Origin: a virus
Taxonomy: Duplodnaviria; Heunggongvirae; Uroviricota; Caudoviricetes
IMG/VR virus record: IMGVR_UViG_2671180460_000005
DNA length: 16,724 bases
Strand: one strand, 5' to 3'
Positions 8,825 through 15,915 of the stretch are shown piece by piece. Both the position numbers and the translations under genes were made by a program. The notes under the pieces were generated by a model, which saw only the letters and a list, made by a program, of their open reading frames with translations, had not been told where the DNA came from and ran no database searches. The first letter of the stretch is position 1; each line of letters begins with the position of its first letter.

Positions 8825-11800
8825 ATGGGTAAAGGTGGCAGCAAGGGGCACACTCCTCGCGAAGCGAAAGATAACCTGAAATCCACGCAGTTACTGAGCG
8901 TGATTGATGCGATCAGTGAAGGGCCGATTGAAGGACCGGTGGACGGAATGAAAAGCGTGCTGCTGAACAGTACGCCGGTGCTGGACAGTGAAGGTAAGGC
9001 CAATTTCTCCGGGGTCACGGTGGTGTTCCGTGCCGGTGAGCAGGAGCAGACTCCGCCGGAGGGTTTTGAATCCTCCGGCTCCGAGACGGTGCTGGGTACG
9101 GAAGTGAAATACGACACGCCGATCACCCGGACCATCACATCAGAAAATATCGACCGCCTGCGTTTTACGTTTGGTGTGCAGGCTCTGGTGGAAACCACGT
9201 CTCAGGGGGACCGCAATCCGTCAGAAGTGAGATTACTGGCCCAGATCCAGCGTAACGGCGCCTGGGTGACAGAAAAAGACATCACCATTAAGGGTAAAAC
9301 CACCTCGCAGTATCTGGCCTCGGTGGTGGTGGATAACCTGCCGCCGCGCCCGTTCAGTATCCGGATGCGCAGGATGACGCCTGACAGCACCACAGACCAG
9401 CTGCAGAATAAAACGCTCTGGTCGTCATACACCGAAATCATCGATGTGAAACAGGGATACCCGAACACGGCACTGGTCGGCGTACAGGTGGATTCAGAGC
9501 AGTTTGGCAGCCAGCAGGTGGGCCGTAATTACCATCTTCGTGGACGCATTCTGCAGGTACCGTCGAACTATGATCCACAGACGCGGCAGTACAGCGGTAT
9601 CTGGGACGGGACACTTAAACCGGCATACAGTAACAACATGGCCTGGTGCCTGTGGGACATGCTCACCCATCCGCGTTATGGCATGGGACAACGTCTCGGG
9701 GCAGCGGAGGTGGATAAATGGACCCTGTATGTTATCGGTCAGTACTGTGACCAGTCAGTACCGGATGGCTATGGTGGCACGGAGCCGCGTATCACCTGTA
9801 ATGCTTATCTGGCATCACAGCGTAAGGCGTGGGACGTTCTCAGTGATTTCTGTTCGGCGATGCGCTGTATGCCGGTATGGAACGGACAGACGCTGACGTT
9901 CGTGCAGGACAGACCGTCGGATAAGGTGTGGACCTATAACCGCGGCAATGTGGTGATGCCGGATGATGGCGCGCCGTTCCGTTACAGCTTCAGCGCCCTG
10001 AAAGACCGCCATAATGCCGTGGAGGTGAACTGGATTGACCCGGATAACGGCTGGGAGACGGCGACGGAGCTGGTTGAAGATACGCAGGCTATTGCCCGTT
10101 ACGGTCGTAACGTCACGAAGATGGAGGCCTTTGGCTGTACCAGTCGGGGGCAGGCACACCGCGCCGGTCTGTGGCTGATTAAAACGGAACTGCTGGAAAC
10201 GCAGACGGTGGACTTCAGCGTGGGTGCAGAAGGGCTTCGCCATGTACCGGGTGACGTCATTGAAGTCTGCGATGATGACTATGCCGGTATCAGTACCGGT
10301 GGTCGCGTGCTGGCGGTGAACAGCGAGACCCGGACGCTGACGCTTGACCGTGAAATCATGCTGCCATCCTCCGGCACCACACTGATAAGCCTGGTTGACG
10401 GAAAGGGTAATCCGGTCAGCGTGGAGGTCAGGTCCGTCACCGACGGCGTGAAGGTGAAAGTGAGCCGGATTCCTGACGGCGTTGCCGGATACAGCGTATG
10501 GGGGCTGAAGCTGCCGACGCTGCGCCAGCGCCTGTTCCGCTGCGTGAGTATCCGTGAGAACGATGACGGCACGTATGCCATCACCGCCGTGCAGCATGTA
10601 CCGGAAAAAGAGGCCATCGTGGATAACGGGGCGCACTTTGACGGCGACCAGAGCGGTACGGTGAAGGGTGTCACGCCGCCAGCGGTGCAGCACCTGACTG
10701 CCGAAGTCACCGCAGACAGCGGGGAATATCAGGTGCTGGCCCGCTGGGACACGCCGAAGGTGGTGAAGGGCGTGAGCTTCCTGCTTCGCCTGACCGTGGC
10801 AGCGGATGACGGCAGTGAACGGCTGGTCAGCACAGCCCGGACGACGGAAACCACATACCGCTTCAGGCAACTGGCGCTGGGGCATTACACGCTGACGGTC
10901 CGGGCGGTAAATGCGTGGGGGCAACAGGGCGATGCGGCGTCGGTCTCTTTCCGGATTGCCGCACCGGCTGCGCCGTCACAGATTGAGCTGACGCCAGGCT
11001 ATTTTCAGATAACGGCGGTCCCGAAACTGGCTGTATATGACCCGACAGTGCAGTTTGAGTTCTGGTTTTCGGAAACGCGGATTGCGGATATCAGGCAGGT
11101 TGAAACCACAGCCCGCTATCTTGGCACGGCGCTGTACTGGATAGCCGCCAGTATCAATATTAAGCCGGGCCATGATTATTATTTTTACGTTCGCAGTGTG
11201 AACACAGTCGGCAAATCGACATTCGTGGAGGCCGTCGGTCGGGCGAGCGATGATGCCGAAGGTTACCTGGATTTTTTCAAAGGCCTGATAACCGAATCCC
11301 ATCTCGGTAAAGAGCTGCTGGAAAAAGTCGACCTGACGGAGGATAACGCCAGCAAACTGGAGCAGTTTTCGAAAGAGTGGAAGGACGCCAACGATAAGTG
11401 GAATGCCATGTGGGGCGTCAAAATTGAGCAGACCAAAGACGGCAAACATTATGTCGCGGGTATTGGCCTCAGCATGGAGGACACGGAGGAAGGCAAACTG
11501 AGCCAGTTTCTGGTTGCCGCTAACCGTATCGCGTTTATTGACCCGGCAAACGGGAATGAAACGCCGATGTTTGTGGCGCAGGGCAATCAGATATTCATGA
11601 ATGACGTGTTCCTGAAACGCCTGACGGCCCCCACCATTACCAGCGGCGGTAATCCTCCGGCATTTTCCCTGACACCTGATGGTCGGCTGACGGCGAAAAA
11701 TGCCGATATCAGTGGTAACGTGAATGCGAACGCCGGGACGCTCAGTAATGTGACGATAGCTGAAAACTGTACGATAAACGGTACGCTGAGGGCGGAAAAA

Positions 11801-12223
11801 ATCGTCGGGGACATTGTAAAGGCGGCGAGCGCGGCTTTTCCGCGCCAGCGTGAAAGCAGTGTGGACTGGCCGTCAGGTACCCGTACTGTCACCGTGACCG
11901 ATGACCATCCTTTTGATCGCCAGATAGTGGTGCTTCCGCTGACGTTTCGCGGAAGTAAGCGTACTGTCAGCGGCAGGACAACGTATTCGATGTGTTATCT
12001 GAAAGTACTGATGAACGGTGCGGTGATTTATGATGGCGCGGCGAACGAGGCGGTACAGGTGTTCTCCCGTATTGTTGACATGCCAGCGGGTCGGGGAAAC
12101 GTGATCCTGACGTTCACGCTCACGTCCACACGGCATTCGGCAGATATTCCGCCGGATACGTTTGCCAGCGATGTGCAGGTTATGGTGATTAAGAAACAGA
12201 CGCTGGGCATCAGCGTGGTCTGA
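8825..12223 (+). CDS. J: Central tail fibre / host specificity protein, lambda gpJ-like, 1132 aa
   Basis: ATG at 8825 with GGAG (8813-8816) upstream. 1132 aa, the same length as lambda gpJ. N-terminus [18 protein letters not shown] and C-terminal roughly 250 aa (...[56 protein letters not shown]...[14 protein letters not shown]) closely resemble lambda J as I recall it. FN3-like segments in the middle. Confidence 0.95.
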
Positions 12224-12284: not shown

Positions 12285-12905
12285 ATGCGTAATGTGTGTA
12301 TTGCCGTTGCTGTCTTTGCCGCACTTGCGGTGACAGTCACTCCGGCCCGTGCGGAAGGTGGACAGGGTACGTTTACGGTGGGCTATTTTCAGGTGAAACC
12401 GGGTACATTGCCGTCGTTGTCGGGCGGGGATACCGGTGTGAGTCATCTGAAAGGGATTAACGTGAAGTACCGTTATGAACTGACGGACAGTGTGGGGGTG
12501 ATGGCTTCCCTGGGGTTCGCCGCGTCGAAAAAGAGCAGCACAGTGATGACCGGGGAGGATACGTTTCACTATGAGAGCCTGCGTGGACGTTATGTGAGCG
12601 TGATGGCCGGACCGGTTTTACAAATCAGTAAGCAGGTCAGTGCGTACGCCATGGCCGGAGTGGCTCACAGTCGGTGGTCCGGCAGTACAAGGGATTACCG
12701 TAAGACGGAAATCACTCCCGGGTATATGAAAGAGACGACCACCGCCAGGGACGAAAGTGCAATGCGGCATACCTCAGTGGCGTGGAGTGCAGGTATACAG
12801 ATTAATCCGGCAGCGTCCGTCGTTGTTGATATTGCTTATGAAGGCTCCGGCAGTGGCGACTGGCGTACTGACGGATTCATCGTTGGGGTCGGTTATAAAT
12901 TCTGA
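12285..12905 (+). CDS. lom: Outer-membrane beta-barrel protein of the Ail/Lom/PagC/OmpX family (lysogenic-conversion moron)
   Basis: ATG at 12285 with GAGAGGTG upstream. N-terminal signal peptide MRNVCIAVAVFAALAVTVTPARA followed by EGG. Alternating hydrophobic beta-strand pattern and C-terminal ...VGVGYKF ending in Phe, typical of small outer-membrane barrels. Same position (between J and stf) as lom in lambda. Confidence 0.9.
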   Translation: MRNVCIAVAVFAALAVTVTPARAEGGQGTFTVGYFQVKPGTLPSLSGGDTGVSHLKGINVKYRYELTDSVGVMASLGFAASKKSSTVMTGEDTFHYESLRGRYVSVMAGPVLQISKQVSAYAMAGVAHSRWSGSTRDYRKTEITPGYMKETTTARDESAMRHTSVAWSAGIQINPAASVVVDIAYEGSGSGDWRTDGFIVGVGYKF

Positions 12906-12958: not shown

Positions 12959-12969
12959 GTGGGGTGAAT

Positions 12970-15294
12970 ATGGCAGTAAAGATTTCAGGAGTCCTGAAAG
13001 ACGGCACAGGAAAACCGGTACAGAACTGCACCATTCAGCTGAAAGCCAGACGTAACAGCACCACGGTGGTGATGAACACGGTGGGCTCAGAGAATCCGGA
13101 TGAGGCCGGGCGTTACAGCATGGATGTGGAGTACGGTCAGTACAGTGTCATCCTGCAGGTTGACGGTTTTCCACCATCGCACGCCGGGACCATCACCGTT
13201 TATGAAGATTCACAACCGGGGACGCTGAATGATTTTCTCTGTGCCATGACGGAGGATGATGCCCGGCCGGAGGTGCTGCGCCGTCTTGAACTGATGGTGG
13301 AAGAGGTGGCGCGTAACACGTCCGTGGTGGCACAGAGTACGGAAGACGCGAAGAAATCAGCCGGCGATGCCAGTGCATCAGCTACTCAGGTCGCGGCCCT
13401 TGTGACTGATGCAACTGACTCAGCACGCGCCGCCGGCACGTCCGCCGGGCAGGCTGCATCGTCAGCTCAGGAAGCGTCTTCCGGCGCAGAAGCGGCATCA
13501 GCAAAGGCCGCTGAAGCGGAAAAAAGTGCCGCAGCCGCAGAGTCCTCAAAAAACGCGGCGGCCACCAGTGCCGGTGCGGCGAAAACGTCAGAAACGAATG
13601 CTGCAGCGTCACAACAATCAGCCGCCACGTCTGCCTCCATCGCGACCACGAAAGCGTCAGAGGCCGCCACTTCAGCACGAGATGCGGTGGCCTCAAAAGA
13701 GGCAGCAAAATCATCAGAAACGAACGCATCATCAAGCGCCAGTAGTGCCGCTTCCTCGGCAACGGCGGCAGGAAATTCCGCGAAGGCGGCAAAAACGTCC
13801 GAGACGAATGCCAGGTCATCTGAAACAGCAGCGGAACGGAGCGCCTCTGCCGCGGCAGACGCAAAAACAGCGGCGGCGGTGAGTGCGTCAACGGCATCCA
13901 CGAAGGCGACAGAGGCTGCGGGAAGTGCAGTATCAGCATCGCAGAGCAAAAGTGCGGCAGAAGCGGCGGCAATACGTGCAGAAAATTCGGCAAAACGTGC
14001 AGAAGATATAGCTTCAGCTGTCGCGCTTGAGGATGCGGACACAACGAGAAAGGGGATAGTGCAGCTCAGCAGTGCAACCAACAGCACGTCTGAAACGCTT
14101 GCTGCAACGCCAAAGGCGGTTAAGGTGGTAATGGATGAAACGAACAGAAAAGCCCCACTGGACAGTCCGGCACTGACCGGAACGCCAACAGCACCAACCG
14201 CGCTCAGGGGAACAAACAATACCCAGATTGCGAACACCGCTTTTGTACTGGCCGCGATTGCAGACGTTATCGACGCGTCACCTGACGCACTGAATACGCT
14301 GAATGAACTGGCCGCAGCGCTCGGGAATGATCCAGATTTTGCTACCACCATGACTAACGCGCTTGCGGGTAAACAACCGAAGAATGCGACACTGACGGCG
14401 CTGGCAGGGCTTTCCACGGCGAAAAATAAATTACCGTATTTTACGGAAAATGATGCCGCCAGCCTGACTGAACTGACTCAGGTTGGCAGGGATATTCTGG
14501 CAAAAAATTCCGTTGCAGATGTTCTTGAATACCTTGGGGCCGGAGAGAATTCGGCCTTTCCGGCAGGTGCGCCGATCCCGTGGCCATCAGATATCGTTCC
14601 GTCTGGCTACGTCCTGATGCAGGGGCAGGCGTTTGACAAATCAGCCTACCCAAAACTTGCTGTCGCGTATCCATCGGGTGTGCTTCCTGATATGCGAGGC
14701 TGGACAATCAAGGGGAAACCCGCCAGCGGTCGTGCTGTATTGTCTCAGGAACAGGATGGAATTAAGTCGCACACCCACAGTGCCAGTGCATCCGGTACGG
14801 ATTTGGGGACGAAAACCACATCGTCGTTTGATTACGGGACGAAAACAACAGGCAGTTTCGATTACGGCACCAAATCGACGAATAACACGGGGGCTCATGC
14901 TCACAGTCTGAGCGGTTCAACAGGTGCCGCAGGTGCTCATGCCCACACAAGTGGTTTAAGGATGAACAGTTCTGGCTGGAGTCAGTATGGAACAGCAACC
15001 ATTACAGGAAGTTTATCCACAGTTAAAGGAACCAACACACAGGGTATTGCTTATTTATCGAAAACGGACAGTCAGGGCAACCACAGTCACTCATTGTCCG
15101 GTACAGCCGTGAGTGCCGGTGCACATGCGCATACAGTTGGTATTGGTGCGCACCAGCATCCGGTTGTTATCGGTGCTCATGCCCATTCTTTCAGTATTGG
15201 TTCACACGGACATACCATTACTGTTGACGCTGCGGGTAACGCGGAAAACACCGTTAAAAACATCGCATTTAACTATATTGTGAGGCTTGCATAA
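12970..15294 (+). CDS. stf: Side tail fibre protein; lambda Stf-like N-terminal and shaft regions, different C-terminal receptor-binding region with His-x-His repeats
   Basis: ATG at 12970 gives [26 protein letters not shown]..., which matches the lambda Stf N-terminus as I recall it; GTG at 12964 is an in-frame alternative. Long Ala/Ser/Thr-rich repeat shaft, then the conserved fibre motif [24 protein letters not shown], then ...[40 protein letters not shown]... as in P2 H-type fibres, then a C-terminal block with eight H-x-H motifs. Confidence 0.92.
13320..14040 (+). repeat. Ala/Ser/Thr-rich low-complexity repeat region encoding the Stf shaft
   Basis: About 240 codons dominated by GCN, TCN and ACN codons, with recurring units such as AKTSETNA (near 13577-13602 and 13787-13812) and SSETNASS. 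It generates long spurious ORFs in the other frames and on the minus strand. Confidence 0.8.
14770..15213 (+). repeat. His-x-His repeat array encoding the Stf distal tip
   Basis: Eight H-x-H motifs (HTH, AHAH twice, HSH, AHAH, AHQH, AHAH, HGH) embedded in Gly/Ser-rich spacers, with recurring nucleotide units GGTGCNCATGCNCA. Confidence 0.8.
14806..14886 (+). repeat. Tandem 30-nt (10-codon) repeat inside stf
   Basis: GGGACGAAAACCACATCGTCGTTTGATTAC ([10 protein letters not shown]), then GGGACGAAAACAACAGGCAGTTTCGATTAC ([10 protein letters not shown]), then the partial unit GGCACCAAATCGACGAATAAC (GTKSTNN). Confidence 0.85.
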
Positions 15295-15875
15295 TGGCAT
15301 TCAGAATGAGTGAACTACCACGGACCATAAAAATTTATAATCTGCTGGCCGGAACCAATGAATTTATTGGTGAAGGTGATGCATACATTCCACCTCATAC
15401 AGGTCTGCCAGCAAACAGTACCGATATTGCACCGCCAGATATTCCGGCTGGCTTCGTGGCTGTTTTCAACAGTGATGAGGCATCGTGGCATCTCGTTGAA
15501 GACCATCGGGGTAAAACGGTTTATGACGTGGCATCAGGGGATGCATTATTTATTTCTGAACCCGGTCCGTTACCGGAAAATGTCACCTGGTTATCCCCGG
15601 ATGGAGAGTATCAGAAGTGGAACGGTACAGCCTGGGTGAAAGATGCAGAAGCAGAAAGACTGTTCCGGATCCGGGAGGCGGAAGAAACAAAAAACAGCCT
15701 GATGCAGGTAGCCAGTGAGCATATTTCACCGCTTCAGGATGCTGCAGATCTGGAAATTGCAACGGAGGAAGAAACCTCATTGCTGGCGGCCTGGAAGAAG
15801 TATCGGGTGTTGCTGAACCGGGTTGATACATCTTTAGCGCCGGAAATTGAGTGGCCGCAGCAACCTGTCAGTTAA
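15294..15875 (+). CDS. tfa: Tail fibre assembly chaperone, Tfa-like
   Basis: ATG at 15294 overlaps the stf stop as TAATG. 193 aa. It sits directly downstream of the fibre gene, and its N-terminal half (...[29 protein letters not shown]...[14 protein letters not shown]...) resembles the lambda/T4 gp38-type Tfa family as I recall it. Confidence 0.85.
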
Positions 15876-15882
15876 AGCATTG

Positions 15883-15903
15883 CCGGCGAAAGCTGGCTTT
15901 TTT
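15883..15903 (+). terminator. Terminator-like hairpin (GAAA tetraloop) with T-tract after tfa
   Basis: GCCGGC (15883-15888), loop GAAA, GCTGGC (15893-15898) gives a 6-bp stem with one G-U pair, followed by TTTTT (15899-15903). Confidence 0.5.
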
Positions 15904-15915
15904 GGGGAAAAATTT

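Follow-up and report, generated by a model that had tools for sequence, protein, structure and literature searches.

The stretch of viral DNA analyzed here (the window; 16,724 nucleotides, IMG/VR record IMGVR_UViG_2671180460_000005) carries a tail block of the lambda type with the gene order J (8825 to 12223), lom (12285 to 12905), stf (12970 to 15294), and tfa (15294 to 15875). [quoted passage not shown] The assignment is based on the translation, on Pfam, and on identity with lambda. Pfam finds the families phage_tail_N, Phage_fiber_2, Collar, and Phage_fiber in the product. The N-terminal anchor to the tail comprises residues 1 to 134 (12970 to 13371; PF08400, phage_tail_N, E = 5.9e-74), and the Collar domain at residues 533 to 580 (14566 to 14709; PF07484, E = 7.8e-11) aligns with the collar of the T4 gp37 tip structure 2XGF and marks the start of a gp37-like tip module.

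The stf product shares 758 of its 774 residues (98% amino acid identity) with the lambda-type Stf of KT232076, and lambda Stf differs from it at 16 amino acids, 2 of which lie in the tip. At the DNA level, stf and tfa show 97.3% identity to phage lambda and phages closely related to it. The tip, residues 528 to 774, is separated from that of lambda by seven synonymous and two nonsynonymous changes (N704S and D753N), none of which hits a histidine. Among complete Escherichia coli genomes, strain C5 holds the closest counterpart, a prophage adjoining ssrA with 97.5% identity over positions 12964 to 16724. The PF08400 anchor, the near-identity to lambda Stf, and the place after J and lom were thus all found, and this sequence evidence identifies stf as lambda's own side tail fiber gene, present in its intact, Ur-lambda-like form in a lambda-like E. 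coli prophage. Shared with Ur-lambda are the eight identical HxH motifs described below, the order J-lom-stf-tfa, and an unbroken stf, unlike the stf of lambda PaPa, in which a frameshift leads to orf-401 and orf-314 (PMC12617516). Tfa departs from lambda at its C-terminal end, as does all of the sequence that follows, where a second fiber gene takes the place of the lambda b region. Three short open reading frames, at 14633 to 14911 (plus strand), 14641 to 14904 (minus strand), and 14762 to 14998 (minus strand), are rejected as genes; they lie inside the strongly conserved coding frame, and no reason was found to accept them.

Lambda carries four side fibers per virion, each of them a trimer, as described by cryo-EM, cryo-ET, and AlphaFold3, and these fibers quicken adsorption roughly 10- to 30-fold (PMC12617516). 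The same study reports "extensive sequence and structural similarity" between lambda Stf and the gp37 tip as well as binding of Stf to OmpC; according to its authors, the receptor-binding domain of gpStf still lacks an atomic structure, and the words iron and histidine do not occur in the main text. In a review, residues 578 to 774 of Stf are modeled on 2XGF as a collar followed by a needle of six strands and a head that binds OmpC, and parts of T4 and lambda fibers are reported to be exchangeable (PMC7291167). OmpC is the reported receptor for both lambda Stf and T4 (PMC12617516; PMC7291167), and its binding by the lambda side fiber is also found in PMC11338833. A study of an Alteromonas phage refers to HxH motifs as conserved "as reported in coliphage Lambda" (PMC11705849).

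Histidine motifs and their alignment with the T4 gp37 tip

The distal part of Stf contains eight HxH motifs, starting at residues 601 (HTH; 14770 to 14778), 643 (HAH; 14896 to 14904), 657 (HAH; 14938 to 14946), 705 (HSH; 15082 to 15090), 719 (HAH; 15124 to 15132), 728 (HQH; 15151 to 15159), 737 (HAH; 15178 to 15186), and 746 (HGH; 15205 to 15213). Of the 17 histidines in the protein, 16 belong to these motifs. When the residues were shuffled 20,000 times each for the whole of Stf, its last 250 amino acids, and its last 175 amino acids, the mean number of HxH motifs per shuffle was 0.35, 0.95, and 1.4, respectively, with maxima of 4, 6, and 7; the number of eight was never reached. As the observed count lies above every shuffle, the motif cluster is real, and chance is ruled out. 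The original prediction placed eight HxH motifs at 14770 to 15213, which agrees exactly with the first and last histidine codons. Its location of them in the C-terminal 150 amino acids was too narrow, since residues 601 to 748 require the C-terminal 174.

A phmmer search with the last 274 residues of Stf against all PDB sequences matched 2XGF, the tip of T4 gp37 (residues 785 to 1026), with an E value of 5.6e-73. Residues 19 to 274 of the query, i.e., the C-terminal 256 residues, align with residues 18 to 242 of the chain, and the alignment extends from the collar to an identical C-terminal end, so that collar, needle, head, and C terminus of the T4 tip all have counterparts in Stf. The Collar domain precedes the needle in both proteins. 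All seven HxH pairs of T4 gp37 align with seven of the eight motifs in the window: H883/885, H915/917, and H929/931 correspond to the motifs at 601, 643, and 657 on the outgoing strand of Stf, and H966/968, H980/982, H989/991, and H998/1000 correspond to motifs on the returning strand. The T4 needle holds seven irons along its length, with H929 of three chains contributing to a single site, and the exchanges H929A and H931A are lethal, abolishing plaque formation (PMC6957217). The numbering of H929 and H931 in the aligned pairs agrees with that publication.

The outgoing needle strand of Stf, delimited by the T4 alignment, comprises residues 601 to 659 (14770 to 14946) and contains the first three HxH motifs and three D-x-G-T-K units. 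One of these units (residues 622 to 631), a third unit absent from T4, is a 10-residue insertion relative to it. The units, with the sequence FDYGTK, coincide with a 30-bp tandem repeat at 14806 to 14874 (2.3 copies, 80% matches; Tandem Repeats Finder). The returning strand, delimited in the same manner, comprises residues 705 to 748 (15082 to 15213) with the motifs at 705, 719, 728, 737, and 746. Here, a 9-residue insertion relative to T4, GAHAHSFSI at residues 735 to 743, holds the additional eighth motif, and the 9-residue G-x-H-x-H units of this strand are encoded by a 27-bp tandem repeat at 15117 to 15186 (2.6 copies, 67% matches; Tandem Repeats Finder, direct repeat family D1). Both types of needle unit are thus encoded by tandem DNA repeats. 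The Phage_fiber repeat PF03335 matches Stf with 29.5 bits (curated cutoff, 20), and its best stretch, residues 638 to 651, is the GAHAHS unit. While T4 gp37 shows seven HxH levels, Stf shows eight, owing to one extra module pair of a 10-residue D-x-G-T-K and a 9-residue G-x-H-x-H insertion.

Between the two strands lies the head, at about residues 660 to 704 (14947 to 15081), which varies more than any other part of the tip and aligns poorly with T4; its role in contacting OmpC is taken from the literature. The segment between the flanking HxH motifs is 48 residues long in Stf compared to 37 in T4 and is divergent, so that receptor contacts are not transferable residue by residue. The returning strand is followed by a conserved C-terminal segment at residues 749 to 774 (15214 to 15291), which leads back to the collar and is nearly identical to the C terminus of T4 gp37. 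Apart from the tip, the context of the two proteins is different: the Stf tip sits on the shaft and anchor of a siphovirus side fiber and the T4 tip on the gp37 rod.

The short tail fibers of the T4 gp12 type and their relatives have the Collar family PF07484 in common with Stf. The short tail fiber structure 9cuy was matched weakly (E = 6.8e-7) at query residues 28 to 136, corresponding to the collar region only, and the PDB phmmer search found no homology to gp12-type fibers over the HxH needle. Foldseek also matched 1ocy and 5iv5, in both cases with E values above 0.01 and starting from a monomer model of low confidence. This AlphaFold2 model of the tip, built from a 35-sequence alignment, has a mean pLDDT of 53.6 with values below 50 in the needle; moderate confidence is confined to the collar and the last strand. 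Low values in the needle are to be expected when a single chain is modeled from a fold that is interdigitated and obligately trimeric. Foldseek again ranks 2xgf_A first (E = 2.9e-19; ∼59% identity; TM-score, 0.30; rmsd, 27.5 Å); this match to a predicted model reflects the sequence, does not reproduce the fold, and offers no independent structural support.

Paired strand lengths in the needle family

The relationship between the two needle strands was examined in a survey of 265 homologues, obtained from a word-indexed search and an exhaustive search of representatives at 50% identity; in the exhaustive search, 1,709 proteins passed a threshold of E ≤ 1e-3 and 929 a threshold of E ≤ 1e-10. Paired lengths were counted in the 251 tips with a complete C terminus. 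In all 251, a first HxH gap of about 32 + 10k residues is paired with 2 + k trailing units of 9 residues, with no exception. A spacing of 32 between the first and second motifs occurs with two trailing units in 164 tips, and a spacing of 41 or 42 occurs with three units in 76 tips. Longer needles are rarer: 52 residues with four units (5 tips), 62 with five (1 tip), and 73 with six (1 tip). The shortest form, with 22 residues and a single unit, is found in 1 tip. Three of the 251 tips fall outside these spacings, namely, P0209, P0223, and P0258. P0209 has an extra HxH motif within a 52-residue segment and four units, and the rule still fits; for P0223 and P0258, the parser gave no outgoing spacing. 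The same balance applies to the HxH units of 14 residues, which are present in equal numbers on both strands in 251 of 251 tips (none in 92, one in 158, and two in 1).

T4 belongs to the 32/2 class with seven motifs, and lambda and the window belong to the 42/3 class with eight; the needle of the window is built with an additional 10/9 module pair and a single 14/14 pair. Across the surveyed tips, the classes range from 4 to 10 HxH motifs, and the head, measured between the third and fourth motifs, ranges from 32 to 70 residues. Variation in the number of motifs is also known from the literature, where T4-like phages have 7 to 9 and Bas63 fibers have 6 to 7, tracking the length of the needle (PMC6563267; PMC12609058). 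These gp37-type needles are reported with the same motif and fold, and the window represents the class with eight motifs.

The histidines themselves are almost invariant. In 247 tips, those at positions −29, −27, −36, and −38 from the C terminus are conserved at 100% and those at −45 and −47 at 99.6%, with 7 to 10 different identities found for the residue between the paired histidines. In the same 247 tips, most positions of the C-terminal segment that corresponds to residues 749 to 774 are conserved at 95 to 100%.

An out-and-back needle requires that the outgoing and returning strands lengthen together, and the covarying strand lengths, an indirect test, support this antiparallel topology for the family. 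The HxH spacing of Stf was therefore found to be compatible with the gp37 needle fold, so that the incompatible spacing named in the original prediction as a ground for refutation was not found, with the 42/3 class obeying the paired-length rule established on 251 tips. No intermediate with mismatched strands occurs among these tips, which suggests that needles of this kind are unable to fold. The needle may well act as a strictly modular ruler, in which a metal level would be gained or lost only through the simultaneous addition or removal of 10/9 or 14/14 units, and lambda Stf would then represent a T4 tip that is longer by one step and carries eight metals.

Tfa, predicted metal sites, and alternative readings

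The tfa gene (15294 to 15875, plus strand) encodes a tail fiber assembly protein of 193 amino acids (PF02413, Caudo_TAP, E = 2.5e-43). Its ATG overlaps the stop codon of stf by one base (TAATG), which suggests translational coupling. Tfa shows 93% identity to lambda Tfa and 28.7% identity to T4 gp38 over 93% of its length. The C-terminal part matches the Tfa of phage Mu (5YVQ; E = 5.3e-9), unlike the N-terminal, fiber-specific part. The same Mu structure has served as the template for a model of lambda Tfa (PMC7291167). According to PMC9659904, which cites Montag et al. 1989, Tfa can stand in for gp38 in the folding of gp37. By its family and its homology, Tfa is assigned as a chaperone of the Caudo_TAP type and a homologue of gp38.

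The distal tip of lambda Stf is, very probably, a collar, needle, and head of the gp37 type with eight metal levels and a Tfa chaperone. Three Stf chains would extend from the collar, fold into a small head in contact with the receptor (OmpC in the case of lambda), and turn back, so that the needle has six strands. Six imidazoles from the three chains would surround a single buried metal site of octahedral geometry at every HxH level; in T4, this metal is iron. The eight His6 sites of a fiber would act as rivets in the needle on which the head domain is presented. The product of tfa would be the dedicated chaperone of this tip. The trimeric state, the bound metal and its identity, the binding of OmpC, and the need for Tfa are expected for Stf from homology and the literature. 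The two further elements of the original prediction, a T4 gp37-like tip at the C terminus of Stf and a tfa gene directly downstream, are borne out by the 2XGF match, the complete alignment of the seven ligand pairs, the Collar domain, and the gp38-type gene whose start overlaps the stf stop. Its proposal of a tip grafted onto a lambda-type fiber does not hold in the sense of a new graft, as the gene in its entirety is the stf of lambda, whose kinship with gp37 has been described before.

The region consists of tandem DNA repeats of 27 and 30 bp and matches the 14-residue Phage_fiber repeat, and no metal measurement for lambda Stf was found in the literature examined (PMC12617516). These points would also suit a β-shaft that is held by packing and hydrogen bonds, in which HxH is a mere signature of short repeats and lambda Stf is free of metal. 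Such a shaft is very improbable given that the homologous T4 segment, which is ∼59% identical, holds its seven irons by these same residues and that the loss of H929 or H931 is lethal (PMC6957217). The nearly complete conservation of the histidines next to a freely varying middle residue also fits ligands better than packing. A different departure from T4 would retain the needle fold and the His6 sites and fill them with a metal other than iron, such as zinc or nickel, or leave some of them empty, including the eighth. Sequence cannot tell which metal binds. The T4 short tail fiber, a related protein that contains a collar, is described as zinc binding through histidines, which counts in favor of another metal. 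The closest solved relative, however, has iron at all seven sites (PMC6957217), and the geometry of the G-x-H-x-H units is conserved, which makes other metals or empty sites in Stf rather unlikely.

A role of the motifs outside the structure of the fiber has been discussed for marine phages with HxH, where fiber iron would act as bait for recognition by siderophore receptors of the host (the "Trojan" or "Ferrojan horse"), and lambda is cited there as a phage with conserved motifs (PMC11705849). For the window, this idea is scarcely credible: the lambda side fiber is reported to bind OmpC, a porin rather than a siderophore receptor (PMC12617516; PMC11338833), the paired-length rule puts the HxH motifs in the core of the needle along the shaft and away from the head, and the needle histidines of T4 are described as critical for the folding and structure of the fiber (PMC6957217). 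The gp37-type needle with eight His6 sites is the preferred reading for the Stf tip.

The kinship of Stf with gp37, the binding of OmpC, and the exchange of Tfa and gp38 are already known from the literature, and as a discovery the locus carries little weight, being a textbook case of tail fiber module sharing between lambda and T4 met again. The additions made here are small and are drawn from sequence comparison: the exception-free pairing of length modules, and a predicted number of sites that is explicitly put at eight. Neither the exact pairing rule nor direct proof that lambda Stf binds eight metals was found in the literature examined, and showing by experiment that a lambda fiber contains about eight metal ions would close a small gap. 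For fiber engineering, the paired-length rule indicates which insertions and deletions in the needle should be tolerated. The tip module starts at approximately residue 528 of Stf, which is the existing point of fusion, S528, in chimeric lambda fibers (PMC11338833).

A second fibre gene downstream of tfa

Immediately 3' of the tail fibre assembly gene tfa lies a second side-fibre-like gene (15916-16724, plus strand), which continues beyond the 3' end of the window. It carries an N-terminal phage_tail_N anchor (E=1.6e-52) with 35% identity to the anchor of the side tail fibre protein Stf, followed by an Ala/Glu/Gln-rich stretch. The counterpart in strain C5, the closest E. coli genome, is a 474-aa protein, after which come a DUF4376 protein and ssrA/smpB. 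In lambda, by contrast, this position is occupied by the b region. The prophage may thus hold two alternative side fibres with a common attachment domain.

The stf reading frame and its repeats

The stf gene forms one uninterrupted reading frame (12970-15294), in contrast to the lambda PaPa records (J02459 / NC_001416), in which the annotation divides this region into orf-401 and orf-314. That split in the standard lambda sequence is a known frameshift of laboratory lambda. Within stf, the two types of needle unit, the D-x-G-T-K units of the outgoing strand and the G-x-H-x-H units of the returning strand of the T4 gp37-type tip, are visible as tandem DNA repeats, the first type with a 30-bp period at 14806-14874 and the second with a 27-bp period at 15117-15186. 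No intermediates with mismatched unit numbers were found among 251 homologous tips with a complete C-terminus (survey P0001-P0265); the copy numbers of the two types co-vary in every case.

Gene overlap and mosaic junction

The stop codon of stf and the start codon of tfa overlap by 1 base in TAATG (15292-15296), an arrangement suggesting that translation of the fibre and of its chaperone is coupled. Nucleotide homology to lambda stops at ∼15856, about 20 bases short of the end of tfa, and the final residues of Tfa differ from those of lambda Tfa; a mosaic junction therefore lies here.
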